This document shows positions 1,889-58,310 of a stretch of 64,000 nucleotides of DNA, piece after piece (position 1 is the first letter of the stretch; each line of letters begins with the position of its first letter). The notes beneath the pieces were generated by a model, which had not been told where the DNA came from, did not search any database, and saw nothing but the letters and a program-made list of their open reading frames with translations. The DNA lies in the NCBI GenBank assembly GCA_963755125.1, contig CAVWIP010000017.1, positions 6,308 to 70,307 of the forward strand, in the 5' to 3' direction. The DNA comes from an uncultured delta proteobacterium. GTDB taxonomy: Bacteria > Myxococcota_A > Polyangia > Fen-1088. A program made the translations under genes and the position numbers.

Positions 1889-2629
1889 TTAGTAGACCTT
1901 TTTCGCGCGAAGTTCCTGCGACTGCTTCTTCAAGAGGGTCACTTCCTCGGGGGAGAGGTAGTCCCATGCCTTCTTCATGACGGCGGCGTACACCTGTTCG
2001 AGGGCGTGAGCGGCGCCGTTTGTGATGATGGTGTTGAGGCCGCGGCTGTCAGGTCGCTCGCCTGAACAGTCAGCCTCGGTTTGCGGGACATCGACCTTCT
2101 TGACCCAGATCTTCTCGCCGGAGAGCGGCTCGAGGAGCACGAAGGAGACGAAACCGGAGACGACGCAGGGGCCGGTGGCCTGGTAGATCTTGCCGGGCCG
2201 GGTTCCGAACATGTCGTCCTGATGATGTATATCCACGTGCGGAGCCGTGATGGTGATCCCGACCTGCGGGGTGAGCGTGAGATCGGCGGTCTTTTTGTCG
2301 ACGAACGTCATCGAATTCAGGTCGTCGAACGGTCCGGTCTGCTTGAACCCCTTCTTGCTGAACATCTCCTGGAACTGCGCGGTCATCGCCGTGTTGAAGG
2401 CGACGGCATTCTTGGCGCTCAGGTTGTCCGTGTTGGTCAGGCCCGCGGAATCAACTGGCCGGACGATGGCGATGGTCACATCCGACGCGGGCGCCTCGCC
2501 GGCCGGGTATGGGAAGGAGAACTGCGGCGCGTAGACCGGCACCGGTGGCGGTGCGCTCGCGCACCCCACGGTCAGCATAGGGGCCAGAGCCAGGGCAAAG
2601 ATAGTCAGGGACCTACGGATCGAGGACAT
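1889..2629 (-). CDS. lipoprotein of unknown function
   Basis: start MSSIRRSLTIFALALAPMLTVGC (lipobox LTVGC) preceded by AAGGAG RBS at 2634..2639; ORF track start further upstream is likely artefactual. Confidence 0.55.
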   Translation of the reverse strand: MSSIRRSLTIFALALAPMLTVGCASAPPPVPVYAPQFSFPYPAGEAPASDVTIAIVRPVDSAGLTNTDNLSAKNAVAFNTAMTAQFQEMFSKKGFKQTGPFDDLNSMTFVDKKTADLTLTPQVGITITAPHVDIHHQDDMFGTRPGKIYQATGPCVVSGFVSFVLLEPLSGEKIWVKKVDVPQTEADCSGERPDSRGLNTIITNGAAHALEQVYAAVMKKAWDYLSPEEVTLLKKQSQELRAKKVY

Positions 2630-2688
2630 GTGAACTCCTTTCTTGAACTTGCGACCACGAACATCCATCTGTGCTGAAACTCGCGCGC

Positions 2689-2720
2689 ACTCCGCGCACA
2701 AGCCGCCTTGTGCGCGGAGT
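2689..2720. promoter_or_regulatory. perfect 14-bp inverted repeat with 4-nt loop in divergent promoter region (candidate operator)
   Basis: ACTCCGCGCACAAG ccgc CTTGTGCGCGGAGT between lipoprotein start (2629) and recombinase start (2751); no U-tract so not an intrinsic terminator. Confidence 0.3.
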
Positions 2721-2750
2721 AGCTCGCCTGAAGACGGCTTGGTCGGTACC

Positions 2751-3704
2751 ATGGAGGTACGCGATATGGACCAGGCCATCGCCGACTTCACCACCCACCT
2801 GCGCGACCGAAACCGGTCGCCGCTCACCGTCGCCCGCTACACCGACCTGCTCCGTCGGTTCGCTCGGTTCGCTTGCGCCGAGCTTCACCAGGACACGGTC
2901 ACCCCTAGCCAGATCGACAAAGCTCTGGTTGTTTTGTTCGTCCGGGAAGGTGGAGTGATCGGCGCTCAAGCATCGGCAGCAACGAGAAATAGCCGGCTCG
3001 CGGCTATCCGAGGGTTCTTTCGCTATCTGGTGGCGGAAGACCGCCTCGCGCGAGATCCGACGACCAGCATCCACTCAGCGAGCCTGCCAGAACGAGTCCC
3101 GACTTTCCTGACCGCGGAGGAGTTCACAATGCTCCGGCGCGCGGTGGAGGGTAGCGCTGCCGAGTTCTACCTTCGGCGTGACTCGGCGATCTTGGTCACT
3201 CTCTGGAACACCGGTCTACGGCTGGCAGAGCTGCTTTCCTTGGATTTGTCGGTGGTCGACTTCGGGGCCGAGGTCTTCCGCACCGTACGCAGAAAAGGCG
3301 GGAAGATCCTGCCCGTCTACTTCAACGTCGACGTGACCATAGCCCTCCGTCGGTGGCTATGGCAGCGCAAGGAATACCCGAATGCCGCCACCAGTCCCGC
3401 CTTGTTCTTGAGTGACCGCGGTCGGCGGTTGAGTTCGCGCGCTGTGGAGGATCTCGTAGGCAAATATGCGAAGCTCGCCGGCATCAAAAAACACGTCACG
3501 CCGCACGTGCTAAGGCACAGCACGGCCACGGCCTTGATCCGCGCGGGAAATGGGATCGAGGTCGTGGCCGACGTGCTCGCGCACTCGTCATTGGATACGA
3601 CGAGGCACTATATCCATCTCGTGGGAGAGCAGGTGCATGCCGCCGTTGCCTCGCTCGCCCAGCCTCCCCGGCGGCAAGTCACAAAAAGAAATACGGCTGT
3701 CTGA
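2751..3704 (+). CDS. tyrosine site-specific recombinase, XerC/XerD-like (phage integrase family)
   Basis: N-terminal SAM-like core-binding region (ADFTTHLRDRNRSPLTVARYTDLLRRF), catalytic R..HxLRH..R..Y pattern (VTPHVLRHSTATALI, TTRHYIH). Confidence 0.8.
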   Translation: MEVRDMDQAIADFTTHLRDRNRSPLTVARYTDLLRRFARFACAELHQDTVTPSQIDKALVVLFVREGGVIGAQASAATRNSRLAAIRGFFRYLVAEDRLARDPTTSIHSASLPERVPTFLTAEEFTMLRRAVEGSAAEFYLRRDSAILVTLWNTGLRLAELLSLDLSVVDFGAEVFRTVRRKGGKILPVYFNVDVTIALRRWLWQRKEYPNAATSPALFLSDRGRRLSSRAVEDLVGKYAKLAGIKKHVTPHVLRHSTATALIRAGNGIEVVADVLAHSSLDTTRHYIHLVGEQVHAAVASLAQPPRRQVTKRNTAV

Positions 3705-6275: not shown

Positions 6276-6920
6276 TCACAACCGGATCGAGGTGAGTTTC
6301 TTCCTAATCCACCAGACCACTACGCCGAGGTATTCAGGGAGATCGCCATCTTTCGGCGTCTGAAGGTCCCGTATCTTCTTCTGAAGCATCCTCGTGGACC
6401 ATCGGCCGGGGCTGCGATGAGTCATCGCCTCAATGACGCCATCGAGTTTGGCGCGACGGTTGTTGCAGAGAAACTTGCGGTTGAGCCCAAGCACCTCGTC
6501 GAGTTCCCTGTCGAGGGTCCTATCGTCAGCGACTACTCGACCGTCGGCTGAGTATTCAACTTGGTCGTCGATGATGTGCTTAGTTGGATCTAGCACAATC
6601 GAGCGATCGCCCTTGCAGGTATCGCAATGCTGTTCTGTAGGCGGCTTGCCCTGTCCACCAAGGCAGGCCGCCAGCAGATTGTTCCAGTCGAGCTGTAGTG
6701 CTTGAAACTCCGATTGTGATCTCCGGTGCTCGATCTTCACTCCGGTTGGATTGTCAGAAATCCGCTGCATGCAGTAGCAACACAGGTTGCCTTGATCTCG
6801 AAGGAGTGCCATTCGGAGGTCGCTCTTGCAGGAGCCACTCAGGTTCCCGAATATGACTGCTCCATCCCGTTTTTCCTTCGTGAGAGACGACGGTTCCCGG
6901 CCTTTCTTGAAGTATCTCAT
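6276..6920 (-). CDS. ptuB: HNH endonuclease (TIGR02646-like), Septu PtuB-like
   Basis: Cys/His HNH-like cluster CCYCMQRI..IEHRRSQSE..HCDTCKG; ATGA overlap with upstream ATPase gene. Confidence 0.55.
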   Translation of the reverse strand: MRYFKKGREPSSLTKEKRDGAVIFGNLSGSCKSDLRMALLRDQGNLCCYCMQRISDNPTGVKIEHRRSQSEFQALQLDWNNLLAACLGGQGKPPTEQHCDTCKGDRSIVLDPTKHIIDDQVEYSADGRVVADDRTLDRELDEVLGLNRKFLCNNRRAKLDGVIEAMTHRSPGRWSTRMLQKKIRDLQTPKDGDLPEYLGVVVWWIRKKLTSIRL

Positions 6921-8409: not shown

Positions 8410-9720
8410 CTAGCTGCGCAAGTGGGCAAGCTGCTCATCGAGCCGCTCGCGGAGCTCGGCAGACTTCCTCGCTGATACGACGTCGCCAGACTCCTTGAAG
8501 AGCTTCTCTGCGACGCTGAGATCGGCAATCTGCGCCTTGAGGTTGTCCTCGTTCCTCGGCTTCAGCGGGAACAAGGAGTGGGTCATCTTGTATGCCGCTT
8601 GGTCGAAGGTGGCGTCAATGTGACGCAAGAGTTCCTCGGCTTGCTTGAGGTAGTCCTTGGCCCGCTCCGTCTGTCGGGCCTTGAGCGCCCAGCGTGCCGC
8701 CGTGGTTTCAGCTTGGGCGGAATCGCGGCCGACGCCGAACTCGTGGCAGACGAGCAGGCACAAGTCGACGAGGTCAAGGCAGACATCGTCCGGATCCAGG
8801 TTCTGCCTCTTGCGTGCCGCCCGCCGGGCGAGAGCTGTATTGAAGAGCGCGCCCTGGAGCGACTGGTAGTCGCCCACGATGCCAGCGAGCACGGCGGCGC
8901 GCAGATGGAGGATGGCGCTCTCTTCGGGGTGATCGTGCCGCCTTTCCAGGATGCCGAGGATATTGAGCACGGAGATGAGTGACGAGATGTCGCCGCTACT
9001 CTCCAGCTGGGCTGCCATGCGACGAAGCATGTCGAGGCCGACCTCGACATCGCCGAACCGCTGGCCGAAAGCCCAGAGGGCCTTGAGTCGGGCGGCCACT
9101 GCCCGCCCGACGGGGTCTTTGCGTTTGCTCCATCTTGACTGGATGTCGCCGAGGAGATCGGCGTCGGCATTGAGAGCTGCCCGGCCCTTAAGGAGCGCGA
9201 CCCAAGCCGCAACGGGGACGTCCGACTTGTCATCGCCTAAATCATCAAGGCCTTCCAGGCTGGCCAATGCTTGCTCGGCGGAGCCTCTCTGTACCAATGT
9301 CGTCGCCTCGACGAGGGCCGCCAGTATCTTCGGCCAATCGTCGGATACCGTCGCCGGCACGCTACGCGATGCCAGCCATGCGCTCACTGCCTCGCGGTCG
9401 GGGAGGAAGGCGACCTCCTCGGGCGGCAGGCTGAGCTTCCAAGCACGGGTCTTCCCGTCGCAGCCCGTAAGCGATCGCGACTCCGCGTCCAGGCCGTCGA
9501 GATGACGGGCGACCTCTTTGCCGATGCTTGACGGCTTCTTGTGGCGCCAATCGCCGATCCTCCGCAGTTCATCCGGGTAGATGAAATCCTGCGCACGAAC
9601 TGGGTTCGTCCGCATCAGCGCGAGGGCCGCATAAAACTCAAACCATTGGCCCTTCGGGAACGAGTTTTTCCCGATGGTCACTGTCCCGTGGTCGAGGTCG
9701 ATTTGCGCGTGTGAATCCAT
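8410..9720 (-). CDS. hypothetical helical protein (436 aa) upstream of Septu-like pair, same strand
   Basis: Ala/Leu-rich helical repeats, no catalytic motif recognised; GGGAG RBS; 108-bp gap to ptuA. Confidence 0.45.
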   Translation of the reverse strand: MDSHAQIDLDHGTVTIGKNSFPKGQWFEFYAALALMRTNPVRAQDFIYPDELRRIGDWRHKKPSSIGKEVARHLDGLDAESRSLTGCDGKTRAWKLSLPPEEVAFLPDREAVSAWLASRSVPATVSDDWPKILAALVEATTLVQRGSAEQALASLEGLDDLGDDKSDVPVAAWVALLKGRAALNADADLLGDIQSRWSKRKDPVGRAVAARLKALWAFGQRFGDVEVGLDMLRRMAAQLESSGDISSLISVLNILGILERRHDHPEESAILHLRAAVLAGIVGDYQSLQGALFNTALARRAARKRQNLDPDDVCLDLVDLCLLVCHEFGVGRDSAQAETTAARWALKARQTERAKDYLKQAEELLRHIDATFDQAAYKMTHSLFPLKPRNEDNLKAQIADLSVAEKLFKESGDVVSARKSAELRERLDEQLAHLRS

Positions 9721-9944
9721 GTGAATCGGTGCTCCCGTAGCCTGACCTTTGCCGCCTCGGTGGCGCCTTCAGGGCGCTCCGGGGCGGCGGAAAGGAGGCT
9801 CGAAGCGATGCATGGATGATAACGCGCCAAGGCGGAATTGAAAAGAGACAGACATGAACTGAAGCCCAAACCCCTCGCCCCCGGCAGTCGAAGCCGCCGG
9901 GGCACCCGCTCCGAAGAACAACAAAGAGCACCAAGGAGAATGAC

Positions 9945-10193
9945 ATGAACGCCAAGAAGAAAGAACCGAACGAGTGCCGGAACCTGGAAGAGCAGAGAAA
10001 CCGCGAATCAATCCGCCCGCGCAGCGCCTGTGCTGGTGAGGTTCGCCACCACCGCGAGTGCGCCTGCGGCCGACCGCGTTCGCTCGTCCGCCACGGGCGC
10101 CGCTGGTACCGCTTGGGCGGCTGCCGGCGCTGCTTGGCCGCCCCAGCGGCGCCAATCGCGGCGTCCTCACTGAAAGGAGGCGGCCATGCGTAG
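9945..10193 (+). CDS. small Arg/Cys-rich protein (possible leader or regulator of downstream module)
   Basis: strong AAGGAG RBS 5-10 nt upstream of ATG 9945; overlaps start of next gene by 8 bp; composition unusual so uncertain. Confidence 0.25.
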   Translation: MNAKKKEPNECRNLEEQRNRESIRPRSACAGEVRHHRECACGRPRSLVRHGRRWYRLGGCRRCLAAPAAPIAASSLKGGGHA

Positions 10194-11190
10194 GCACGGG
10201 AATAAAGTCGATGTAGCCAGCGAATTGCGCATGCGCAAGATTGCGGCCTGCATTCATGCCGGTGCCACCAACATGCCGAGAAAGATCATTGAGGATCGGA
10301 TCGTCAGCGAAATCATCGAGGGGCGCGATGGCGAACCATGCGGGCGGCTCCGTGCCGAGAAGGCGCGACTGAAGGCGATTCGTACCGAAGACGGTGAGAT
10401 TGTCGCCCTCGTCGCCGAGCGGAAGAAGAAGATCGGGCCGGTCGAAAGATGCCTCGATGAGGCTGTCGCCGCCCGGCAGGCGGTCGAGAATGGGGAACTG
10501 CCGTCGTACAGCAACAAGGGGCAGACCATCGGCACGCTCGTCTTCGTGGCCGCCGACGGTTCGTTCATGTTCTGGGCCTTCTGTGACGTCGCCGGCATCG
10601 ACCTCACTCAGGGGGTCGGCGATCTCGCGGTCACGACTGCCGTCATGATCACCTTGGTATCGCTCTTAGGCGTCCTGGTGAATTCCTTCTGCGGCTTCCT
10701 CGCGACGAGCCCCCGCCCGCGGCTGCGGCTCGTCGGCTGGGCGTCGCTGCTAACGATCGCCGTGACCTTGGGAGTCATGCGGGCCAAGTCGACGGCCGAG
10801 ACGAACTACGCCTTCACGGTCTTCGGCTGCATCGTGACCATGGTGGCCGGCTACGCGGCCGGCGCCATCCAGCGGCGGTTGCTCCCGATCATCGGCGCTC
10901 ACCGCGCCCATCGCCGCCGCCTCGAAATCGCCCAGAAGGCTGAATCCGAAGCCCAAGCCAAGCTCGACGAAGTACACGCCGCCGTCGAGCAATTAGAGGA
11001 GCGTCGCCGGTGCCTCAAGGCTGAAGCCGAGAGCCTGGCGAGCATGCCGGCCCGGCGGGCGGCGCGGAAATCCGAAATCGAGAAGATCCAGGACGCCCGC
11101 CTCAAGTCCGTCCGTTACTACTACGCCTTGGGCCGGCGTCTCTTCGGGCGCAAGCCGGCCGACGAGGGGGAGGAGGCGTCCCGTGACTAG
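10186..11190 (+). CDS. membrane protein with N-terminal soluble domain, 3 TM helices and C-terminal coiled coil
   Basis: AAGGAGG RBS; hydrophobic segments LAVTTAVMITLVSLLGVLV / LVGWASLLTIAVTLGVM / FTVFGCIVTMVAGYAAGAI; heptad-like C-terminus. Confidence 0.5.
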   Translation: MRRHGNKVDVASELRMRKIAACIHAGATNMPRKIIEDRIVSEIIEGRDGEPCGRLRAEKARLKAIRTEDGEIVALVAERKKKIGPVERCLDEAVAARQAVENGELPSYSNKGQTIGTLVFVAADGSFMFWAFCDVAGIDLTQGVGDLAVTTAVMITLVSLLGVLVNSFCGFLATSPRPRLRLVGWASLLTIAVTLGVMRAKSTAETNYAFTVFGCIVTMVAGYAAGAIQRRLLPIIGAHRAHRRRLEIAQKAESEAQAKLDEVHAAVEQLEERRRCLKAEAESLASMPARRAARKSEIEKIQDARLKSVRYYYALGRRLFGRKPADEGEEASRD

Positions 11191-11923
11191 ACTGGGGCTT
11201 GCTTTGGCACTCTCCTCGCTCATCGCCTGTGGCGGACGGCCGCAGCCGGTCGAGCGGGTCAGCGTCCCCGACAATTCGACTTCGTCCCACGCCAGCGAGA
11301 TGAGCGTGAAAAAAGAGGCGCAGGCATTCCTCGACGAGCTCGTGCCGGGGAGCCGCTTCACGGTCATGCCGGTGGCCTGCACCAGCGACTTGGTCGAGAT
11401 CATCTACGATATTTGCGTGCCGCTCCGCTTCGGCTCGGGCGCGGCCCAGAAACGGAGAGCCTGGCTCGAGGCCGAGGAACGCCACCTCGAAACGCTCCGT
11501 CTGCGTCGGCCCGAACGCTGCAGCGGCGTCGTCGGCGCCATCTGGCGCGCCAGCCGCTTCCTGCAGGAAAGCGGCCGGCCGGTGAAGGAACTCTACATCA
11601 ACAGCGACTTGCGCGAGGTCTCGCCCGAGCTTGGGCCAGGGATCAATTTCGAGAAAGCCATTCCCGCGCCCGAAGACTTCCTCCTCAAGGTCAAGGAGAA
11701 GAACCTGCTGCCAGACCTCCACGGCGTCCGCGTGTATGTGTACGGCGTGCATGACGAGGCAAGCCCGGACTCCCGCCGGTGGACCTCCCAGCAGGCCGGC
11801 GCCTTGCGCGCGGCCTGGACGGCGTTCTTCAAAGCGGCCGGCGTCGATCACGTCGAATTCCGCGCCACCTCAACTTGGGAGAAGGCCGAGCCGGCCAACG
11901 TCGCCTGGGGCGGGCTGCGATGA
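11183..11923 (+). CDS. lipoprotein of unknown function
   Basis: GTG start after GGGGGAGGAGG RBS; signal MTRLGLALALSSLIACGG (lipobox LIACG); overlaps previous stop. Confidence 0.5.
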   Translation: MTRLGLALALSSLIACGGRPQPVERVSVPDNSTSSHASEMSVKKEAQAFLDELVPGSRFTVMPVACTSDLVEIIYDICVPLRFGSGAAQKRRAWLEAEERHLETLRLRRPERCSGVVGAIWRASRFLQESGRPVKELYINSDLREVSPELGPGINFEKAIPAPEDFLLKVKEKNLLPDLHGVRVYVYGVHDEASPDSRRWTSQQAGALRAAWTAFFKAAGVDHVEFRATSTWEKAEPANVAWGGLR

Positions 11924-12285
11924 CCGCGATCCTCGCGTTCGCATTGGTCGTGGCCGGGTTGGCGGTAGTCGTCGGGGCGCGAGAGACCGCCAAGAAGATC
12001 GGCTTGGCGGTCCTGGCGATCATCGTCTGTATGTCCGTCGGCCGCTGCATCCTTTGCTGGCTTTCCGCGGCCTCGGCGCCGTCGGTTGGCTCCGCGCCCG
12101 GCGTCGGTTGGTTCTGGCCGTCCATCGCCTTGGCGCTGATGGCGATCGGCGGGATTGCGTGGAAGTTGCGGGCAGCCCGGCAAAGTCGCCTGAACGAGCA
12201 TCGGCGTCGCCACATGCACCCGCGCCAACCGGCGCCGCTCCCGCCACCGAGCCACTCATCGGATCGCGGGGAGGAGCCGTTTTGA
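11920..12285 (+). CDS. small integral membrane protein (3 TM)
   Basis: ATGA overlap with previous gene; MTAILAFALVVAGLAVVVGA.., LAVLAIIVCMSVG, FWPSIALALMAIGGIAW hydrophobic helices. Confidence 0.4.
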   Translation: MTAILAFALVVAGLAVVVGARETAKKIGLAVLAIIVCMSVGRCILCWLSAASAPSVGSAPGVGWFWPSIALALMAIGGIAWKLRAARQSRLNEHRRRHMHPRQPAPLPPPSHSSDRGEEPF

Positions 12286-13910
12286 ACCTGGCGCTCACGC
12301 TCGCCCGTCGGGCGCTCCATGGCTCGGACGTGCGCCGGGCCATCGTGCTCCAGCACGAAGCGCTGAAGCGGGAGCGGCAGCGGGCCGAGAGCGGGAATCT
12401 CCCGCCGTGGGACATCGTCGCCGGCACGCCCACCTTTCTCATCGGCCAGACCGCCGACGGCCGAGCCGTCAAGCTCGACATGTCGACGCTGCTTGCCCAT
12501 CTGCTCCTTCTCGGCCCTACGCGCGTTGGGAAGACCGCGCTCATGGCCCTCCTCGTCAATGCCCTGCTTCATTTCGGGATCGTTTCCGTCATCGCCATCG
12601 GCGTTGGTAAGAATGACTCCATCGAGTACACGCGGGCGGTGCTTGCGAAGTGGCTCATGGGCCTGCCGCGGGAGCGGGCCGAGGATATCCTGGGCCGCGT
12701 GATCGTGGTGGCGCCGTCGTCGGGTTCGCACCTGGTGCCCTTCGACCTCACGGCGCCCGAGCCTGGCCGCTCGGCCGAGCTGCAGGCCGCCGACCTCACG
12801 CGCAGCCAGTTCGTCACGCACGCCCATCCCATCGGCCCCAAGCAGGAGGACATCGCCTATCTCACGTTTAGGTTGCTCATCGACACCGGGCTGCCGGCCA
12901 ACTTCTTCGACCGCCCTTTGCGGGATCCGGCGGTCGCTCAGCGTCTAGCCGACCGGACGTCCAACCCCGACCTGTACCGCGGCTACCTCGAACGCCTGCG
13001 CCGCGAGTACCGCAGCGATGCCGTCCTCGGGCTCGTCGCCCGCGCCAACGCCCACTACCGCCATGAGCCCACCCGGCTCATGGTGGGCGGCGCCGAGGGC
13101 GTCACCATCCACGCGCCGAAACTCTTCGACGGCATGGTGGCACTGGTCGACTTGACGGCGGAGTACGGCGCCGAGGACGCCATTCGCTTCATCGGCTCGA
13201 CCTTGTGGAGTCGCTTGGTGCGGGCGTCACTGGCCAGGCTGGTGGGTAGCCCGCCGTGCTTCGTGTTGGCCGACGAGTTCCAGCAGCTGCTCCAGTCGGA
13301 GCAGGATGCGGCACTGGCGCTCGAAAATGTCTTGCGCCTTTGTGCGGCGCGTAGTGTGTGGTGGTGGCTTGCGACGCAGACGCTCGCCGGTCTGGAACGG
13401 TACGGCTCGTCGCTATCCAAGGTCATCGCGGTCAACGCCACGTTCAAGGCGATCTTCCGCACCTCGGACGCCATCGACGGCCTGCTGCCGGTGACCGGTC
13501 GTCGGCGGAGGCCGTGGGCTCCGGCTCCGTGGCAGAAACCGGCCGATTATTATCTCTCGCGGAGCGAGGAAAGGGCCTATCTGGCCGAGCAACTCGCCTC
13601 TCTCGGCCCCCGGCTCTGCTACGTCCAGCACGCGAAGAGCGGCCGGGCCGGGACATTGATCCGCACGGCGGATGCGACCGTGTCCATGCCCGAGGACTGC
13701 CCGGACTTCATCCGCGTGGGGCTCGAGCGCGGCACGTTGGCCGTGCCAGTCGAGAAACTTCGCCGGGGGCTCGATGCTGCCGAGCGGCGGTTCGCGGCGC
13801 TCGTGGACGATCCGCGCGCGGCCGAGATAGCCAGAACCGAGTCCGCGGCCATCGAGGTTTCGTCGCCCAAGCGGAAGACGCCGCGGGCGCGGCCGTTGGA
13901 GATGGGGTGA
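12282..13910 (+). CDS. P-loop ATPase of FtsK/HerA/VirD4 (T4CP-like) superfamily
   Basis: Walker A GPTRVGKT, Walker B CFVLADEF, downstream WWLATQTL (ATQ motif typical of FtsK-HerA clade); probable TTG start overlapping previous stop. Confidence 0.5.
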   Translation: MNLALTLARRALHGSDVRRAIVLQHEALKRERQRAESGNLPPWDIVAGTPTFLIGQTADGRAVKLDMSTLLAHLLLLGPTRVGKTALMALLVNALLHFGIVSVIAIGVGKNDSIEYTRAVLAKWLMGLPRERAEDILGRVIVVAPSSGSHLVPFDLTAPEPGRSAELQAADLTRSQFVTHAHPIGPKQEDIAYLTFRLLIDTGLPANFFDRPLRDPAVAQRLADRTSNPDLYRGYLERLRREYRSDAVLGLVARANAHYRHEPTRLMVGGAEGVTIHAPKLFDGMVALVDLTAEYGAEDAIRFIGSTLWSRLVRASLARLVGSPPCFVLADEFQQLLQSEQDAALALENVLRLCAARSVWWWLATQTLAGLERYGSSLSKVIAVNATFKAIFRTSDAIDGLLPVTGRRRRPWAPAPWQKPADYYLSRSEERAYLAEQLASLGPRLCYVQHAKSGRAGTLIRTADATVSMPEDCPDFIRVGLERGTLAVPVEKLRRGLDAAERRFAALVDDPRAAEIARTESAAIEVSSPKRKTPRARPLEMG

Positions 13911-13913
13911 CTA

Positions 13914-14242
13914 TGGCGGGCAAGAAGTCGGGCATCTGGTGGGCCATGAAGATGGTGTTGTTGTTGACGTTCTTCGCCGTGTACGGCGTCGTCTGCTTGG
14001 TCGGCTCGACAATCCGACTCGCCCGAAGGATCTGCTGGGGCATCAGGCTCCTCCGTCACACGATCCGTTGCCCATATTGCCATTTCGAGGTGCCTTTGGT
14101 CGGTCGCTATTTGTGCTCGACACCGGGTTGCGGCGCCGAATACCAGGGCTTCATCCAGAAGTGCAACATCTGCGGCAGCGGCTGCCTGTGGACGCCGTGC
14201 CCGCGGTGTAGCGCCGCTGTGCAGGTGGGGATGAGGACATGA
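13914..14242 (+). CDS. small membrane protein with double CxxC zinc-ribbon
   Basis: TM helix MKMVLLLTFFAVYGVVCLVG; CPYCHF..CSTPGC..CNICGSGC..CPRC; starts 4 nt after ATPase stop. Confidence 0.4.
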
Positions 14243-15159
14243 CCGGCACCGTCAACGGCACGTGGCCCTTTCTCGATCCGCGCATGGACCGCGAGCGCGT
14301 CGTGCGCATCTGCTACGTGGTCGCACGGCTCGGCTACTTCTGGTGCGCCGACTGCGGCTTCATCTTCTTCAAGCGCAAGAACACGGCTCGGCAGTACCCG
14401 GCCCGGCTCGTGAAGCGCGGCCTGCTCGAAACCTTCCCGCGTCGGAGCCTGGCCGACTCGCACGTCTATCGCGTCTCGGAACGTGCGCTCGAATGGCTGG
14501 TAGACGAGATTGGCTGCGACCCCAGCGACGTCTGGCGGCCCGCGAGTCTAAGGCGCTTGAACGTTCCCGCCGCGCGCGCCATGAACCGCTTCTGGTGCTC
14601 GCTCGTGGCCGCCTGTGAGGGCTCGCCGATACGCTTGCACCGTTTCGTGCCCGAGCGCCAGTTGCGCCGGTTCAAGGCGCCGGGTTGCCCTGTGGTGCCG
14701 GACGCGCTCTTTGTGCTGGAGGCGTCGGCCGAGGGCGGCGCCGAGGGCGCATCGCGGCTGCCCTGGTTCGTCGAGCAGGACAACAGCACCGAGCGCCTCA
14801 AGGTCTGGGCCGAGAAGATCCGCGGCTACCGGTCCAATCTGCCCTCGGGCCGCCTGTACGGGATGCGTGACTGGCTGCTGCTTGTGCTGGCGCCAACGCG
14901 CAAACGCGCGGCCAACATCAGCCGCACGGCCGTCGCCGCTGGCGGCGGCGACTTCACCTACGTCGCCATCGCCGCCGTGCTCGAAGGCGGGCACGCCTTG
15001 GACGCCGTGCTCTGGCGGGCTTCGACCCTCGCCGCGGACGCCAATGCCGTGCCGACCGACACGCTGGTTTCCGCCGCTCGGAGCACGTCTCGACCTACGT
15101 CAACAACCCCTGTCAGGCCTGACGGGCTTTCCCAGCACCTTTCCGGAGGAATTCCGTGA
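14239..15159 (+). CDS. putative winged-helix DNA-binding protein (replication-relaxation-like)
   Basis: ATGA overlap with previous gene; N-terminal wHTH-like RICYVVARLGYF..; family assignment tentative. Confidence 0.35.
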   Translation: MTGTVNGTWPFLDPRMDRERVVRICYVVARLGYFWCADCGFIFFKRKNTARQYPARLVKRGLLETFPRRSLADSHVYRVSERALEWLVDEIGCDPSDVWRPASLRRLNVPAARAMNRFWCSLVAACEGSPIRLHRFVPERQLRRFKAPGCPVVPDALFVLEASAEGGAEGASRLPWFVEQDNSTERLKVWAEKIRGYRSNLPSGRLYGMRDWLLLVLAPTRKRAANISRTAVAAGGGDFTYVAIAAVLEGGHALDAVLWRASTLAADANAVPTDTLVSAARSTSRPTSTTPVRPDGLSQHLSGGIP

Positions 15160-15493
15160 AGTTCCCTTTTTCAAGGCTGCGGTCAATACGCCCTGCCTGC
15201 TCTGGCGGGCAGGGCGCCTCTGTTTGGGCGGCGGCGCCGCCGCCCTCGCGCGCGGCGCGGGCCATGCCCCCGCGCGCCTTCCCGAGATCCCTGTCACGCC
15301 GGCTCGGCCGGCGATTCGTACCGGTATTCATTTGCATTCGCACACAACAAGTTCAGGCGCGGGAGTGTCCGCGCCGAAAGGAGGTCGGTCACGGAACATC
15401 GGGCCACGCGGAAGTTGGTGGAGACTGGCCAGCCGAGTCGCGCTCGCGGCTTGCACACCGGGCTCTCTTTACTCAACTAAAGCAACACCCAAT

Positions 15494-16186
15494 ATGAGCA
15501 ACCACAACCTGACGTACAGCATCTCCAAGCGGACTCCGGCAACGCCGAAGGCCGTCAAGGAGATCTTGGACGCCCAAGCGGCATTAAATAGCGCCTGCAC
15601 CTGGACGCACGAACGCCTCGCGTTCGTACCGCCTCGGGACGCGGGACGCGCGGCCTTCCCCCTGCAATTCGCGAGATTTGGACTCGCATCAGCCAACCCG
15701 CCTGCTTTGGACGGATTCGGCGCTCATCCGCCGACTCCTCCTGCGGATGTCTTCATGTCCGGCTCGACGCGCGTGCGCGACAACCTATGGAACGCCCACC
15801 TCGTCGCAGCATTCTTGAAGCACATCTCGCGCAAGCATCCGACGCTGCTCTTCGAGCTACGCGACGACGGCGGGTTCGTGATCCCGGGTTCCGTATGGAT
15901 CCGGGGAGGTGCTGTGGAAGTAAACCGCGAGTTCCTGAATACAGAGCGCGCGCGAGTGCTGGAAGTCACCGGCGACCCGCAGGCCGCAGTTCCGTACGTG
16001 TGGGCCGAACTTCAGGCTCTCGGAGGGTCCTTCTTCGCGGAAGCGTCGATGGACGACTTCGGGAACGTGCCGGAAGTCCGGGAGCTGGGAGCTTCCTGGG
16101 ACCAGCTTGAGAGCATGAGCATCGAGGATCTCGCCTCGCTTGTCGTCGAACACGCGACGACGGAGGCGGTCCCCGTCGCGGCTTAG
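15494..16186 (+). CDS. hypothetical protein
   Basis: ATG 15494; 230 aa; no recognised motif. Confidence 0.35.
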   Translation: MSNHNLTYSISKRTPATPKAVKEILDAQAALNSACTWTHERLAFVPPRDAGRAAFPLQFARFGLASANPPALDGFGAHPPTPPADVFMSGSTRVRDNLWNAHLVAAFLKHISRKHPTLLFELRDDGGFVIPGSVWIRGGAVEVNREFLNTERARVLEVTGDPQAAVPYVWAELQALGGSFFAEASMDDFGNVPEVRELGASWDQLESMSIEDLASLVVEHATTEAVPVAA

Positions 16187-16337
16187 GCAGGAGGCCCATG
16201 TCATTCGTGATCAACCAGCAGAAGGGGGCGGGCGGAGCGCGAGTCCGGTGTGCGACGCGATCGCGTCGCGGCTTCGCGCCACCGTCCGCCCCCGCTGCGC
16301 TACGAGTCATACGGCAAACAACTACGAGGGGTGCAGC

Positions 16338-16613
16338 ATGAACACGATCACCGCAACGACCGGCGCTGAGCCGTCATCGCCCGCGAGCGCGGCGGACGAT
16401 TCGCGCCTTTGGGACGCGAACGATGTGGCCCGGTTCATCGGCGCCAGCCGTTCCTGGGTCTACCATCAAGCGGAAGCGGGACGATTGCCTTGCATCCGCC
16501 TTCTCGGTTTCCTACGCTTCGATCCCCAAGTGGTCCGGGCTTTCGTGCTGGCGGCGTCGTCCGCGCCAGCAAGGTTGAAGTCCGGCGACGCTTCGGGCGC
16601 TTCAGGGAGATAG
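16338..16613 (+). CDS. excisionase/AlpA-family HTH DNA-binding protein
   Basis: WDANDVARFIGASRSWVYHQAEAGRLPCIRL HTH; GAGGGGTG RBS; immediately precedes integrase. Confidence 0.55.
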   Translation: MNTITATTGAEPSSPASAADDSRLWDANDVARFIGASRSWVYHQAEAGRLPCIRLLGFLRFDPQVVRAFVLAASSAPARLKSGDASGASGR

Positions 16614-16616
16614 GCC

Positions 16617-17981
16617 ATGCCTTCGGTTTTCAAACGCGGTGTTCGCTGGTACGCGAAATACAAGGACGCGACGGGGCGGTGGCGCACCCGGCCGACGACG
16701 GCCGACACCAAGACCGACGCCAAGCGGTTGGCCACTGACCTCGAACGCCAAGCCGAGCGCCACCGGCTCGGCTTGGAACCGCTCCCTACCGACGACGGCA
16801 CCACGCTCGGCGACTTGCTGAGCTGGTGGGAGACGACGTACTTCAAGCAGAGCCCCGCCTATGCGAAGAGCTGCGGCACATTCCGCCGTCACCTAGTCGG
16901 GTCCAACCTGTCGAAGAGCTCAATACGCGAAGTGACGACGGGCAGGGTGGAGCAGTTCATCCAGGCGAAGACGCGCGAGCTGGCTCCCCAGACAGTGAAC
17001 CACCTGCGCAGCTTCCTCTGTCGCGCCTTCAGCGCCGCCCGGCGCGCCGGCAAGGTCACCCAGAATCCGGTCCTCGACGTGAAATGTCGGCGCGTGCCCA
17101 AGCGCCTCCCAACGTTCCTGACCCTGGAGGAGGTTCCGCGCGTCCTGCTCGCGCTCCCCAGGCGCTGGCGGCCACTCTTCGCCACGGCCATCTACTCCGG
17201 GCTGCGCAAGGGCGAGCTGCTCGGGTTGCGGAAGACCGACGTGGATCTCCCGCGGCGGCTCATTAGCGTTTGCCGCTCGTACGCGCGCGACACCACCAAG
17301 GGCGGGCACGCGGAGGCGGTGCCCATCGCCTCCGAACTGGTGCCGTACCTCGAAGCCGCCATCAAACAGTCCTCGTCCGAGTTGGTCTTCCCAAACGAGG
17401 ACGGCTCGATGATGTCCGAGGAGGCGTCGCTCCAGGAACTGCTGCAGTCGGCGCTCGCCCGCGCCGGGATCGTGACCGGCTACAGCCACATCTGCCGACG
17501 GAAGGGATGCGGGCATTCCGAGGTGGCGAAGGACGCCGACCTGCGGCGTTGCCCGAAGTGCAAGATGAAGCTCTGGCCGCGGGCGCTGGTGCGGAAGATC
17601 CGCTTCCACGACCTGCGCCACACGACCGCGTCGTTGCTCATGATGGCGGGCGCGAATCCGGCGGCCGTTCAGCGCATCCTTCGCCACAGCGATCCGCGCA
17701 TCACGACTGAGGTTTACGGCCACCTGGCACCGGAATATCTCCGTCGAGAAATCGATCTCCTGTCCTTTGGCAAGCCCGTGAACGACACCGGAAACGCTTC
17801 CGCAAGCTCACCGAAAAACGATCCGTTTGGTGCATTAGTGGTACAAGAACCGAATGATGCACTGATCGGCGGATCCAGTGGATCTCGGAGCCCCCTGGAA
17901 ATGCAGGGGTTTTCGCTTGAGCGCGAGACGGGGCTCGGACCCGCGACCCTCGGCTTGGGAAGCCGATGCTCTACCAACTGA
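16617..17981 (+). CDS. tyrosine integrase (phage integrase family); 3' tail reads across tRNA-Gly on opposite strand
   Basis: catalytic R..HDLRHT..R..Y region (IRFHDLRHTTASLLMMAG, EVYGHLAPEY); no stop until 17981 so last ~60 codons overlap tRNA 17920..17992. Confidence 0.8.
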   Translation: MPSVFKRGVRWYAKYKDATGRWRTRPTTADTKTDAKRLATDLERQAERHRLGLEPLPTDDGTTLGDLLSWWETTYFKQSPAYAKSCGTFRRHLVGSNLSKSSIREVTTGRVEQFIQAKTRELAPQTVNHLRSFLCRAFSAARRAGKVTQNPVLDVKCRRVPKRLPTFLTLEEVPRVLLALPRRWRPLFATAIYSGLRKGELLGLRKTDVDLPRRLISVCRSYARDTTKGGHAEAVPIASELVPYLEAAIKQSSSELVFPNEDGSMMSEEASLQELLQSALARAGIVTGYSHICRRKGCGHSEVAKDADLRRCPKCKMKLWPRALVRKIRFHDLRHTTASLLMMAGANPAAVQRILRHSDPRITTEVYGHLAPEYLRREIDLLSFGKPVNDTGNASASSPKNDPFGALVVQEPNDALIGGSSGSRSPLEMQGFSLERETGLGPATLGLGSRCSTN

Positions 17982-17992
17982 GCTACTCGCGC
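17920..17992 (-). tRNA. tRNA-Gly(CCC), 73 nt, no encoded CCA; atypical T-loop TCCGAGC
   Basis: minus-strand GCGCGAG TA GCTC AGTTGGTA GAGC A TCGGC TTCCCAA GCCGA GGGTC GCGGG TCCGAGC CCCGT CTCGCGC T: 7-bp acceptor, D arm, anticodon CCC, U73 discriminator. Confidence 0.6.
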
Positions 17993-17993
17993 A
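17955..17993. repeat. 39-bp direct repeat (tRNA-Gly 5' half), left copy; putative att core
   Basis: identical to 58272..58310. Confidence 0.6.
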
Positions 17994-18026
17994 AACGTAA
18001 TGTTTTCAAACTGTTATCTGTACTTC

Positions 18027-19256
18027 TTAGCCCCCGTTATGTGCCCCTGTAACCACAGCGTAACCAACGGTACCGTTCTGCGTCCCCGGACAGCCTATTG
18101 ATACCACGTCCCCACCGGAGTGCGAAAGGTCTACCCGGACGGCATCGAAGTCCTCTTCCTTGAAGTGCTCGGGTCGAAGATGCGCGTAGCGTTCCGTGGT
18201 GGTCACGCTGGCATGCCCAAGGATCTTGGAGAGCTTCTCCAGCGAGTGGCCATCCATCACCCACAGGCTCGCGAAGGTGTGCCTGGTGGCCTGGTACCAC
18301 GAGATGGGCGGTAGCTTGCAAGCCTTCAGCGCCTTCGCAAGGTTGCTTCGTAGGGAGTGGGCACGCATGAAGGTTGAGGGTCGCTTTGCCGTTCCCCCAC
18401 GCGTGGGACACGTAGGAACGAACAACATCCCCTCGCCTCCGGTCTTGAGCTTCCACCGCGCCAAGATGGGTGCCAGGGCATTCTGCAAGGGCACGATGCG
18501 GGGGTCGTCATCCTTGAGCGGGGCCAGCCTCCCGTCCTTCACCTGTTGTGTTACGTGGATTCGCCGGTTGGCTAGGTCCACGTCCTGCCAGGAGAGCCCC
18601 AGTACCTCGCCTGTTCTCAGTCCCGCCAGTGCCCCCACGGCGAACGCCACGTCGTAGGGCTCGCTCAAGGCCCGGAACACCCGTTCGACATCCGATATCT
18701 TCTCCAGGAATGGCGTGTTGGTGGTATCCAGCTTGGAGCGATACAGCCTTCGTACCGAACGAGGAAGCAGGGAGACAGGATTCACCCGTGCGAAGCCCTG
18801 TTCGATCACCTCCGCGAAGAAGGTGGAGAACAGGCGGATGCAATGTCCTACGGTTGTGGGGTGCATCCCCTCACTGAGCTTGCGTTCCACGAAACGGCGC
18901 AGGCTTGTCGAATCCACCTCGGTTGGCTTGCAGGCCCCGAAGAAGGGATCGAGATGCTTGCGCCATCGGCAACGATCATCGCGCCAGGCCCGATGAGTCT
19001 GCTCGCGCCGGTCGAGCCAGTCCTTGGCCAAGTTCTTCAAGCTCGGGGCCGTCTTGAGTTCGACGGGCATCCTATCCCGCCCTGCACGCGCATCTGCGGT
19101 GAGCACGTCCAGCATCTTCTTGGCTTCGTCCTCGGTGGGATACCCTCCCTTCGTGCACACCCGCCCTGCTACACGCCACTTGATCCAGAAGTTTCCGGGG
19201 CCGCGCTGGTAGACGCAGCCTTGCCCGCTGGGCCTTTTTCGTTTCTTTCGTGCCAT
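18027..19256 (-). CDS. tyrosine integrase (phage integrase family)
   Basis: start MARKKRKRPSGQG with AAGGAG RBS; R..HTFAS..R..Y catalytic region (ATRHTFASLWVMDG, TTERYAHL); 3' end 34 bp from tRNA 5' end. Confidence 0.85.
   Translation of the reverse strand: MARKKRKRPSGQGCVYQRGPGNFWIKWRVAGRVCTKGGYPTEDEAKKMLDVLTADARAGRDRMPVELKTAPSLKNLAKDWLDRREQTHRAWRDDRCRWRKHLDPFFGACKPTEVDSTSLRRFVERKLSEGMHPTTVGHCIRLFSTFFAEVIEQGFARVNPVSLLPRSVRRLYRSKLDTTNTPFLEKISDVERVFRALSEPYDVAFAVGALAGLRTGEVLGLSWQDVDLANRRIHVTQQVKDGRLAPLKDDDPRIVPLQNALAPILARWKLKTGGEGMLFVPTCPTRGGTAKRPSTFMRAHSLRSNLAKALKACKLPPISWYQATRHTFASLWVMDGHSLEKLSKILGHASVTTTERYAHLRPEHFKEEDFDAVRVDLSHSGGDVVSIGCPGTQNGTVGYAVVTGAHNGG
18044..18075. repeat. ~32-bp repeat cctgtaaccacRgcgtaaccaacggtaccgt (also 58126..58158; partial 58661..58690); encodes integrase C-terminus, candidate arm-type site
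   Basis: direct comparison of the three loci. Confidence 0.45.
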
Positions 19257-19368
19257 GGTCTCCGCTCCTTTCTTTGTCCGCGACCTGGACGAGACCAGCG
19301 GCGCAGGGCCTGTCCGTCCCGTCCTCGGTCCTGTTGCCCTGATAAAGATCCTCGACGCCTGACCAGAT

Positions 19369-19690
19369 TCAAGCTGATCGCAGCTTGGCCACCTTGTCGG
19401 CGATGGTCTCGCGGTCGGTTCCATGCAACCGCGCCATGTCCACGCGCACGGTGTTGCCGATCTTGACCGTCGGCACCTCGCCCCTCTTCACCCACCGGCG
19501 CATCGTGGGAACGCTGACCTTGAAGGCGGTAGCTGCTTCCGTGATGGTCACGAGGGCAGGGGGCAGGGCGGCCCGCAAGCTTTCCAGCTTGTCTGTGTTG
19601 TCGGTGACTGCACGCTCCAACGCCGCGAGCCGCGTGGGGATATCCCCCATGGCCGAGAACAAGGCAGCCAAGTTCTGCGTGTCGCTCATC
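19369..19690 (-). CDS. excisionase-family HTH protein
   Basis: C-terminal FKVSVPTMRRWVKRGEVPTVKIGNTVRV HTH; start MSDTQNL (alt. M14); adjacent to integrase. Confidence 0.5.
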
Positions 19691-21839: not shown

Positions 21840-23084
21840 CTATGGCCGCGTCACGCCGGAGTCATTTGAAGGAAGCCGCCGGTTCAGCAGCTCTGGAGAT
21901 GCCGTCACGTTCGCCTGCAGCGACGATGTGATCGTGCCGGTGCTCTTCATCGACGACCTGGACACCGTGTTGCAGCAGGCGGACATCGCGTTCTGTCGGT
22001 TGTTGTTCACGGTTACAGTCCGAACCAGTTCATCCTCGGAGGTTTGAACGATGCGAATCGGCAACAGGACTCGCTCCCAAAGATCCTCTTTGATCTTCGT
22101 TCTAAGGTGGGGGTCGTAGCGGAAGAAGAATGCGTTCTTGATCGTCTGGCAGCCGTTGAGCACAAATGCCTCGCGCAGCTCAACCCCGCCATCGACAACC
22201 TCACTGCGACGTGCGAACAACGTGATGCCATTATGAAACATGGCGAACCGCTCAGGGGTGAGCGTGCCTTCCACGCAAATCTGCTTTAGGGTCGCCCTCA
22301 TCTTTCCGGCCGGGCCCTTCTCGGTGTTCTTCTTCGACATGAGGTAGTACCGCACGTTTCGGGAGAACAAGGCATCTCGCCGAGCGCAGTACAGATTCAC
22401 CAAGTCCGCCAGTCGACCTACGCCGGTTAGCATGCTAGCCCCTTCGCCGGCGGAGAAGTGGTGTGCCCCTTCAAGACGAAGCATCACCGTCTCAGGGCGC
22501 GCTACGACGATTTGTTGTGGCCCGACGTGTACTGGCCCAACCGGTCGGATGCGGCACGTGTGTCCGTCGAGCACGTCTGCGACAACCTCGCGAAGCCGGG
22601 TCATCGCGCCTCCCAGACGCTGACCAAGTATCGCCTCCTCTTCGCCCGAAAGGTGGAGGACTTGTAGCTCCAGCTCAAGCGAGGATCGGCTCTCCTCCGT
22701 GAGCCTGTTCAGAGCTGCGCGCAGATTCATCAGGACCTTGTTTTCGACCACGTTCTCGGGCTCGAGTCCTTGAAGACATCGGCCTATCTCACCTAAGGTC
22801 CGTTCAAGATCCTTGAACCCCTTTGCCACCATCTGGAGGGATTCCGTGTACTTCGCCTGCACAAGTACCAGCGTGTCCGGTTTTGCGCCGTTCCCAGATT
22901 CGAAATGAAAAGCGTCGACCCCGAAGTCGTAGTTGCCATCCGAAGACTGCTGCATAGCCTGGCTTTCCGGCAGTTGGAACTTTTGGTGCAGGTACCAAGG
23001 GGCGAAGCAGTGTGCCTCGGTCCCGGTGAAGGCAGTCCGCTTCCAGAAACTCCTGACCTGGTCCCTGACTGCTGCGCTATTCAT
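21840..23084 (-). CDS. AIPR-like abortive infection protein (putative)
   Basis: N-terminal PD-(D/E)xK-like DFGVDA..VLVQAKY; later VLNGCQT matching AIPR NGxQT motif; strong AAAGGAGG RBS. Confidence 0.45.
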   Translation of the reverse strand: MNSAAVRDQVRSFWKRTAFTGTEAHCFAPWYLHQKFQLPESQAMQQSSDGNYDFGVDAFHFESGNGAKPDTLVLVQAKYTESLQMVAKGFKDLERTLGEIGRCLQGLEPENVVENKVLMNLRAALNRLTEESRSSLELELQVLHLSGEEEAILGQRLGGAMTRLREVVADVLDGHTCRIRPVGPVHVGPQQIVVARPETVMLRLEGAHHFSAGEGASMLTGVGRLADLVNLYCARRDALFSRNVRYYLMSKKNTEKGPAGKMRATLKQICVEGTLTPERFAMFHNGITLFARRSEVVDGGVELREAFVLNGCQTIKNAFFFRYDPHLRTKIKEDLWERVLLPIRIVQTSEDELVRTVTVNNNRQNAMSACCNTVSRSSMKSTGTITSSLQANVTASPELLNRRLPSNDSGVTRP

Positions 23085-26402: not shown

Positions 26403-26520
26403 CGCAGCTGCCGCAGGTGAGGTCAGGATGGCACTGTACGGTAACGATATCTTTGAGAGTGACGCTGCCTACGAACGATGTTTTGACGATGGAGTTGACC
26501 CGATTTGGTGGACGGTTTCG

Positions 26521-27405: not shown

Positions 27406-27707
27406 GCGCTCTCCTTGGCGAAGAAGGTGGCCGCCCTTTTTAAAATCTCACGCTCCATGCGGAGGACTTTCACCTCGCGACGCAGATGCGAAAGTTCTTC
27501 CTTCTCGGCGGTCGTCAGGGCGCCAGCAGGGCCCTTGCCCTCGTCTACCCTCGACTGCCGATCCCACTGGTACACCAGGCTGCTTGCCACCCTGAAGTCC
27601 TTTGCTACCTGCGCGACGCTGCGTCCTGCACGGACGAGCGCCACCAAGTCTGCCTTGAACTCGCGCGTGTGCATGCGCCGGGATCGCTTCTTCTCTTTGT
27701 CCAACAT
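27402..27707 (-). CDS. IS3-family transposase OrfA (HTH)
   Basis: MHTREFKADLVALVRAGRSVAQVAKDF; -1 frame relation to orfB; candidate slippery run TTTTAAAAAG near junction. Confidence 0.8.
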   Translation of the reverse strand: MLDKEKKRSRRMHTREFKADLVALVRAGRSVAQVAKDFRVASSLVYQWDRQSRVDEGKGPAGALTTAEKEELSHLRREVKVLRMEREILKRAATFFAKESA

Positions 27708-58271: not shown

Positions 58272-58310
58272 TTGGGAAGCCGATGCTCTACCAACTGAGC
58301 TACTCGCGCA
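58272..58310. repeat. 39-bp direct repeat (partial tRNA-Gly 5' half), right copy; putative attR
   Basis: identical to 17955..17993; tRNA similarity stops after anticodon loop. Confidence 0.6.

Follow-up and report, generated by a model that had tools for sequence, protein, structure and literature searches.

The window analysed here is a 64,000-nucleotide stretch of contig CAVWIP010000017.1 (assembly GCA_963755125.1, positions 6,308 to 70,307) from an uncultured delta proteobacterium assigned to the Polyangia. GenBank proteins MGA7743193-MGA7743199 belong to this region. At 9945-15159 it carries a seven-gene operon that we interpret, with a probability of roughly 0.58, as the mobilization core of an integrative mobilizable element (IME) that integrates at a tRNA gene, encodes its own MOBC-type relaxase and a split coupling protein, and would depend on the type IV secretion system (T4SS) of a helper. 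What sets it apart from other IMEs that pair a MOBC relaxase with a coupling protein of their own is the split of the coupling ATPase, its conserved transmembrane (TM) zinc-ribbon partner and the accompanying envelope accessories. No description of this element family was found in the literature. How most genomic islands are transferred is not known, and the mobile elements of Myxococcota have been little characterised.

The operon and its gene products

The operon comprises the following open reading frames (ORFs) and a terminator-like hairpin.

9945-10193, + strand: ORF0, which opens the operon; AAGGAG 7 nt before its ATG
10186-11190, + strand: ORF1; AAAGGAGG upstream, 8-nt overlap with ORF0
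11183-11923, + strand: ORF2; GTG start within the end of ORF1 (GTGACTAG)
11920-12285, + strand: ORF3; ATGA overlap with ORF2
12282-13910, + strand: ORF4, the ATPase; TTG start, TTGA overlap with ORF3
13913-14242, + strand: ORF5; 2-nt gap after ORF4
14239-15159, + strand: ORF6; ATGA overlap with ORF5
15189-15216, + strand: terminator-like hairpin with a 12-bp stem and a 4-nt loop, followed by CCTCTGTTTG; 30 nt past ORF6

The operon was compared with the close relatives L001-L003, with L004 (40% ATPase identity), with L012 (reached through a homologue of ORF2) and with the distant loci L005 (33%), L006/L007 (31%), the locus of P0085 (24%) and L008 (21%). All seven genes lie on the + strand and every junction is an overlap or a gap of 2 nt. 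On the basis of these overlaps and of the hairpin, which has a near-identical copy in L001 and a different counterpart at the same position in L003, 9945-15159 is one operon with a defined end. The original prediction, made from the sequence alone, had described one translationally coupled unit with strong AAGGAG(G) ribosome-binding sites on its first genes, and both features are present (the latter at ORF0, as AAGGAG, and at ORF1, as AAAGGAGG); the gap it gave as 4 nt measures 2 nt, between ORF4 and ORF5. Its count of six or seven genes can be narrowed to seven. ORF0, an Arg- and Cys-rich protein of 82 aa with a putative zinc finger (CxCGRP...CxxC), would be doubtful by composition alone, but it is conserved in relatives and is therefore counted: homologues are present in L003 (phmmer, 2e-16), in L001 as an uncalled gene and in L012, where only a C-terminal stretch matches. 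A perfect 20-bp palindrome, GGGCGGCGGCGCCGCCGCCC, lies just past the terminator at 15226-15245 and shows no conservation in L001 or L003.

ORF4, labelled 'hypothetical protein' in GenBank, is a soluble P-loop ATPase of 542 aa in which the Walker A (GPTRVGKT), Walker B (VLADEF) and ATQ motifs first read from the translation are all present. About 70 residues precede Walker A, and there is no TM segment in the sequence or in the AlphaFold2 secondary structure. Scans with the single sequence gave sub-threshold P-loop matches to TraD, VirB4, FtsK, HerA and TraG-D_C. A single-sequence search of the PDB sequences found nothing; only the family profile gave matches there, to EssC/FtsK, HerA, DotL, TrwB, DptH, TcpA and VirB4 chains. 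An exhaustive HMMER search of 1.84 billion cluster representatives returned 214 relatives at E <= 1e-3, mostly of 520-560 aa and 20-33% identical to ORF4. Among 71 aligned members of the family, Pfam matches were obtained to DUF87, the HerA central domain (49), and to FtsK_SpoIIIE (24), and at E <= 0.01 to TrwB_AAD_bind (22 of the 71) and TraG-D_C (21 of the 71). The ATPase family marked out by the module amounts to about 214 clusters (50% identity), and its copy in the window is not called by current Pfam, NCBIfam or PADLOC models. The AlphaFold2 model of ORF4 built from the family alignment (pLDDT, the predicted local distance difference test, of 90) has the DptH C-domain as its top Foldseek match. 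In this model the Walker A/B nucleotide-binding domain has a TrwB-like fold including the helical insertion, as in type IV coupling proteins (T4CPs), and FtsK is a poorer structural match. The family scans, the profile matches in the PDB and the model together place ORF4 within the FtsK/HerA superfamily, on its VirB4/VirD4 side, in line with the superfamily originally named for it. Two T4CP-like sister proteins, P0161 and P0166, are encoded in contexts unrelated to the operon.

ORF4 departs from both of the conjugation ATPases that it resembles. It has no counterpart to the large N-terminal domain of VirB4 (total about 800 aa), and the N-terminal TM domain of a T4CP is not part of the same polypeptide; a separate protein with three TM helices, ORF3, is encoded by a gene that overlaps the start of the ATPase gene. 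ORF3 is 121 aa long, with its three helices predicted from hydropathy and a basic, Pro-rich C-terminal tail (RRRHMHPR..PLPPP). Homologues were found by phmmer in L012 (1e-10), L004 (2e-8), L005 (1e-5) and L006 (9e-4). In seven of the eight related loci (L001, L003-L006, L008 and the P0085 locus) the end of the three-TM gene lies 0-7 nt beyond the start of the ATPase gene, which fits translational coupling; in the eighth, L012, the two gene calls overlap by 79 nt. We propose that ORF3 is the detached membrane domain of the coupling ATPase ORF4.

The C-termini of the two proteins are also conserved in character. Part of the ATPase family ends in ...RP(L/M)E(M/L)G or ...LPxLG, the tail of ORF4 being RPLEMG (13884-13910). 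The tails RPLEMG, LPNLG and PFPELG always have a terminal Gly and follow a basic linker modelled with low confidence, and the three-TM partner ends in a conserved R..LPPPP tail. Both tails look like docking peptides. A resemblance of the integrase tail 'SPLEMQG' to the ATPase tail 'RPLEMG' was also considered, but other integrases lack it and it was taken as chance.

In ORF5 (109 aa) a single N-terminal TM helix precedes a Cys-rich zinc ribbon that contains several CxxC pairs, in agreement with the TM zinc-ribbon protein originally predicted. Its homologues are in L001, L003, L005 (3e-15) and L008 (4e-8), and the gene is present but uncalled in L012 and L004. With its TM zinc-ribbon partner, the split coupling protein makes an accessible system for the question of what brings a coupling ATPase to the membrane and to its relaxase.

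ORF6 (306 aa; 'replication-relaxation family protein' in GenBank) matches Pfam Replic_Relax (PF13814) with an E value of 5.2e-13 and 50 bits against a cutoff of 25.3, over profile positions 26-175 of 191, so that the replication-relaxation likeness seen at the outset is significant. Seven homologues, with identities down to 23%, all retain P154, D155, E179, D181, E185 and K193; arranged as P154-D155, E179-x-D181, E185 and K193, these residues form a PD-(D/E)xK-type centre, and the Replic_Relax family has reportedly been placed in the PD-(D/E)xK superfamily by an earlier study. What CONJscan calls the MOBC relaxase superfamily corresponds to PF13814 (Coluzzi et al., 2017; PMC5357655). ORF6 is accordingly named here as a candidate MOBC-type relaxase. 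The family name would also suit a replication initiator, with the ATPase as a helicase, translocase or partition motor and the pair serving to maintain the excised island. No other replication gene is recognisable in 9945-16613, and the ThiF and tubulin-like genes of related islands recall plasmid maintenance cassettes. The tight coupling of the ATPase to membrane proteins, its predicted fold, which is closest to conjugation ATPases, and the treatment of PF13814 as a relaxase domain in CONJscan-based work (PMC5357655) speak against this; we regard a maintenance role as improbable.

The two remaining products belong to the envelope. ORF1 is a membrane protein of 334 aa with four TM helices predicted from hydropathy and a C-terminal coiled coil; it evolves fast (about 30-40% identity within the close clade), and family scans gave only weak SLATT_1 and holin-like matches. 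ORF2 is a lipoprotein of 246 aa (lipobox LIAC) with a vWA fold and a metal-ion-dependent adhesion site (MIDAS) motif, D30-x-S32-x-S34, of which D30 and S34 are invariant across 20 homologues; the same fold is also known in pilus-tip adhesins. Homologues of ORF1 are present in L001, L003 and L012. Homology to ORF1 and ORF2 is confined to the close clade; at that position L005 and L008 have a lipoprotein gene and a TM coiled-coil gene that are analogous. Pfam scans of these ORF1-like and lipoprotein-like proteins of the distant loci gave nothing useful (a weak VWA_3 match at 0.045).

Conservation of the block and its place beside integrase genes

Downstream of the operon lie the genes and the presumed target of integration.

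16338-16613, + strand: xis, an excisionase-type HTH_17 protein; Pfam HTH_17 1.6e-4, PHROG 66 (excisionase)
16617-17981, + strand: int, a tyrosine integrase; Pfam Phage_integrase 4e-22, PHROG 1 3e-68
17919-17992, - strand: tRNA-Gly(CCC), found with ARAGORN; its 3' end faces the integrase gene

Excisionase and integrase genes thus stand next to tRNA-Gly as had been described, and this tRNA gene is presumed to be the integration target. An Rfam scan of 9600-18100 found nothing beyond the tRNA (67 bits).

Only 11 close relatives of ORF4 were found among 5.8 billion proteins, all of them metagenomic. Scans of the GTDB representative genomes with the family alignment and with the single ATPase gave no relative, and a tblastn search of the PLSDB plasmids with the ATPase gave no match. 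No protein of the operon is better conserved in the close clade than the ATPase (72-92% identity). The order three-TM protein, ATPase, TM zinc-ribbon protein, Replic_Relax protein is kept from 92% down to 21% ATPase identity in all loci except L006/L007, in which the Replic_Relax gene is inverted and the zinc-ribbon gene was not seen; the components universal across the examined loci are thus only the three-TM protein, the ATPase and the Replic_Relax protein. In L006/L007 (5373-8582) and in the P0085 locus, the pair of vWA lipoprotein and TM coiled-coil genes gives way to genes for ThiF (E1-like), for a membrane protein with a JAB domain and, once, for Tubulin_2.

The neighbourhood is conserved as well. 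Immediately downstream, the P0085 locus and L008 have genes for an HTH_17 excisionase and a tyrosine integrase, and L001 has them no more than about 1.6 kb away. In L006/L007 and L012 an integrase gene comes a few genes later (3.8 kb downstream in L012). Of the five related loci with sufficient flanks, four have the Replic_Relax gene at most about 1.6 kb from xis/int. The integrase gene adjoins tRNA-Gly(ccc) in L006/L007; in L001, which has a swapped xis/int module, its neighbour is tRNA-Leu. From the upstream flanking gene to the integrase, the P0085 locus and L008 span about 10-13 kb and contain no mating-pair-formation gene.

The recurrence of the block is far beyond chance, and the module is conserved in at least one myxobacterial class and in uncultured bacteria. 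Since the core recurs at 21-92% ATPase identity beside tRNA genes, it is element backbone and not cargo. The original prediction had staked itself on an ATPase of the FtsK-HerA clade and on a block conserved elsewhere, and both were found. In the loci examined the module marks small tRNA-integrating islands with cargo such as the Septu anti-phage system, and its recognition would let annotation pipelines flag such islands as mobilizable.

This constancy bears on whether the operon might be a membrane-anchored ATPase-nuclease system for defence or conflict carried by the island, which had at first been thought equally likely. The ATPase has weak PADLOC matches (mad8, 1.3e-6; HerA, 2e-3), its model has the DptH C-domain as top Foldseek match, ORF1 weakly matches SLATT_1, and a Septu system lies next door; the combination of a PD-(D/E)xK nuclease with a HerA-like ATPase is moreover a common theme in defence. 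No system-level PADLOC match was obtained, however, ORF1-ORF3 and ORF5-ORF7 (the scan left out ORF0) gave no match at all, and the likeness to the DptH fold is one that conjugation ATPases share. Cargo for defence is normally found in variable regions, which is where Septu lies here, whereas the module keeps its place beside xis/int or int across the whole range of ATPase identity. Coupling to membrane proteins and this recurring place fit poorly with defence and with maintenance of the excised island alike, and a defensive function is considered very improbable.

Probable mobilization by a helper and the competing explanations

A MOBC-type relaxase combined with an element's own VirD4-like ATPase matches CloDF13, and the genes follow the order coupling protein, relaxase, excisionase, integrase; the operon is therefore interpreted as the mobilization core of an IME. 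The usual order in compact IMEs is coupling protein, relaxase, (excisionase), integrase, and their class 8 combines VirD4 with MOBC (PMC5357655). As expected of an IME, an integrase, an excisionase and a candidate relaxase of the element's own are present without mating-pair genes, as judged on about 40 scanned ORFs of an island whose left end is undefined: Pfam scans of these window ORFs found no VirB4 or other T4SS family, and none was found in the related small islands.

We infer each biochemical step of the following route, together with the splitting of the TM domain and the dependence on a helper, from the observed gene order, coupling, folds, motifs and conservation of the block beside integrase and tRNA genes. 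Xis and Int would excise the island from tRNA-Gly(CCC), and ORF6, as a MOBC-type PD-(D/E)xK relaxase-like nuclease, would recognise and nick a putative origin of transfer (oriT). The nucleoprotein complex would pass to ORF4, a VirD4/VirB4-like ATPase presumed to be hexameric, which ORF3 (the coupled three-TM protein, a split version of the CloDF13 MobB membrane domain) and ORF5 would hold at the inner membrane. The DNA would then be pumped into the mating channel, namely the T4SS of the helper. The vWA/MIDAS lipoprotein ORF2 and the membrane protein ORF1 may act as envelope accessories for docking, contact or exclusion.

The closest parallel is CloDF13 MobB/MobC, in which a MOBC-type relaxase and a VirD4-like ATPase of the plasmid's own likewise occur with a three-TM anchor and without mating-pair genes (PMC7431656). 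MOBC1 plasmids are the rare mobilizable plasmids with their own coupling protein, and for mobilization CloDF13 MobB requires its membrane domain, which is about 150 aa long and has three helices (PMC7431656). The present element differs in being integrative, with xis/int at a tRNA gene, and not a plasmid; in having the membrane domain as a separate protein of 121 aa; in placing a TM zinc-ribbon gene between the ATPase and the relaxase; and in adding the vWA lipoprotein, the four-TM coiled-coil protein and the small zinc finger. Sequence likeness to CloDF13 exists at the profile level only: the mob region of the PLSDB record, which lists no mobB or mobC gene and has short, broken and probably frameshifted ORFs, gave a partial profile match around Walker B at 89% probability and no MobC frame that could be used. 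Streptococcal IMEs of class 8 share the compact order of coupling protein, relaxase and recombination genes and a PF13814 relaxase (PMC5357655), but they are Firmicutes elements with serine integrases and a canonical VirD4, whereas the family described here has tyrosine integrases at tRNA genes, a divergent split ATPase, extra membrane proteins and a diderm host.

Several results weigh against mobilization by a helper. ORF4 scores below the curated thresholds of the T4CP models T4SS-DNA_transf, TrwB_AAD_bind, TraG-D_C (15 bits against 22) and TIGR TraD (20-21 against 366-648), and its modelled fold lies no nearer to TrwB than to VirB4 and DptH. In a tblastn search of the PLSDB plasmids ORF6 gave no BLAST-level match to a MOBC relaxase, its one marginal match (6e-4) being to a Herpetosiphon plasmid. 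No helper T4SS was seen in the scanned ORFs, and no oriT was identified for this island, for which the non-coding regions 15160-15493 and 9721-9944 are candidates. The search for attL/attR repeats of this island was likewise negative: a repeat of the tRNA 3' half of at least 12 nt was found upstream in none of the window, L001, L006 and L008, and because the window holds no such repeat the left end of the island was not found. Finally, the vWA lipoprotein, the four-TM coiled-coil protein and the TM zinc ribbon are extras that a plain IME does not need.

These extra envelope proteins, with the VirB4-like fold, keep in play a self-sufficient machine in which the seven genes export DNA with a single ATPase and no T4SS, a possibility that we judge unlikely. 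ORF3, ORF4 and ORF5 would then form the membrane motor, and, on an equally tentative assignment of roles, ORF1 would be a channel component and ORF2, whose vWA/MIDAS fold recurs in pilus-tip adhesins, a contact or adhesion factor. Translational coupling joins the ATPase to four or five envelope proteins, analogous pairs of lipoprotein and TM coiled-coil genes lie upstream in L005 and L008, and T4SS genes are missing from the scanned ORFs and from the small islands. There is also a precedent in Thermus, where a single ATPase donates DNA from a tRNA-integrated element (PMC5365140); Streptomyces TraB, the 'transjugation' ATPase TdtA of Thermus and the archaeal Ced system are the functional comparators. 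If the envelope proteins did form a channel of their own, the operon would represent a new minimal route of conjugation in diderm bacteria. The evidence on the other side is that ORF1 and ORF2 are not universal, ThiF, JAB and tubulin-like genes standing in their place in loci of the L006/L007 and P0085 type, and that the TM zinc-ribbon protein is missing from L006/L007. A relaxase of the MOBC type suggests that a single strand is transferred in the classical way, by a T4SS; homology to TraB is absent, FtsK is a poorer structural match, and no outer-membrane channel component is recognisable for a diderm host. Still less likely is the fullest form of the proposal, a complete single-ATPase machine for DNA export or conjugation in diderms, built of the split motor ORF3/ORF4/ORF5, the MOBC relaxase, a polytopic protein and a surface lipoprotein.

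Two further comparisons concern tRNA islands with one ATPase. Actinomycete integrative and conjugative elements (AICEs) are likewise small tRNA-integrating islands with one ATPase, small membrane proteins and xis/int, but the combination of FtsK_SpoIIIE translocase, Spd and Rep in an actinomycete host was not found here. The general idea that the operon is the DNA-translocation module of an integrative element, with a Replic_Relax, xis/int and tRNA core, stands; the accompanying analogy to AICEs and their Spd proteins is not the closest one, and an interpretation as an AICE with a TraB-type motor finds no support. ICETh1 of Thermus is a tRNA island of about 15 kb whose TdtA, a membrane-associated hexameric FtsK/HerA ATPase, donates DNA without a T4SS (PMC5365140). 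The present island resembles it, in a comparison by description only, as a tRNA island with an ATPase of the FtsK/HerA superfamily; it differs in that the TdtA operon has NurA-like, restriction and methylase genes and no MOBC relaxase.

The wider island and the neighbouring 40-kb element

Between the operon and xis, and upstream of the operon, the island contains the following features.

15335-15493, + strand: conserved non-coding block upstream of ORF7; about 75% invariant columns among the window, L001 and L003
15494-16186, + strand: ORF7, 230 aa; no match in family scans
8410-9720, - strand: 436-aa protein with a weak TPR match, divergent from the operon; common to close relatives including L003
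6917-8302, - strand: PtuA (Septu); PADLOC 6e-103
6276-6920, - strand: PtuB (Septu); PADLOC 9e-63
2643-3704, + strand: second, Xer-like tyrosine recombinase; also in L001 and L003
1889-2827, - strand: NLBH-like protein; also in L001 and L003

DNA conservation in the island is highest over ORF7 and the roughly 160 bp preceding it, at 87-90% identity compared with about 74% for the operon in L001 and L003 (regions compared: 15335-16186 in the window, 12994-13960 in L001 and 13044-14228 in L003). An N-terminal extension of ORF7 into the upstream block was considered and rejected, since the variable columns of 15335-15493 show no codon periodicity (17/11/11 by phase, against 30/22/68 in ORF7). The block, which holds a GC-rich hairpin (GGCGCGG-GAGTGT-CCGCGCC), is a candidate promoter, operator or oriT, and its conservation together with that of ORF7 may reflect a regulator, an oriT or a recent recombination tract. 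A remote homologue of ORF7 lies beside the Replic_Relax gene in L006 (4e-10).

The integrase frame runs about 70 codons beyond the region of the catalytic Tyr and stops antisense inside the tRNA gene (17919-17981), so that the C-terminus of the integrase may differ between the integrated and the excised form. In phage Mx8, attP lies inside int. At the far side of the operon, PtuA and PtuB make up a complete Septu anti-phage system, which is cargo in the variable part of the island. The genes at 1889-3704 are probably island backbone; in L012 a recombinase with the same two domains as the 2643-3704 protein is found in the same place.

The DNA beyond the tRNA gene has the look of another element inserted in tandem. 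About 40 kb are flanked there by the two copies, at 17955-17993 and 58272-58310, of a perfect direct repeat of 39 bp, which covers tRNA-Gly(CCC) between its anticodon loop and its 5' end and so represents the 5' half of the gene. This 40-kb stretch opens with a second tyrosine integrase gene (18027-19424, - strand) and with genes for an HTH_17 protein and a DUF3631 protein. The copy at 58272-58310 is the only tRNA repeat in the window and belongs to this neighbouring element. Duplication of a tRNA 5' half rather than a 3' half is unusual; here the intact tRNA-Gly(CCC) would draw its 5' half and its promoter from the 40-kb element. The recognisable genes of this element include the following.

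21840-23084, - strand: AIPR (abortive-infection-type) protein
28385-29551: Kelch-repeat protein
32520-33734: second Kelch-repeat protein
46541-48526: GH88 glycoside hydrolase
56748-57914: DinB/IMS-family polymerase

Large ORFs of 1165, 729 and 514 aa in the 40-kb element have no Pfam match. Two IS3-family insertion sequences, 1,280 bp long, 100% identical and in direct orientation, lie within it at 26490-27769 and 39872-41151, each consisting of an HTH_Tnp_1 ORF and an rve ORF. The pair could make a composite transposon, carrying about 12 kb with the Kelch-repeat proteins, an HNH endonuclease and a PNP_UDP_1 phosphorylase.

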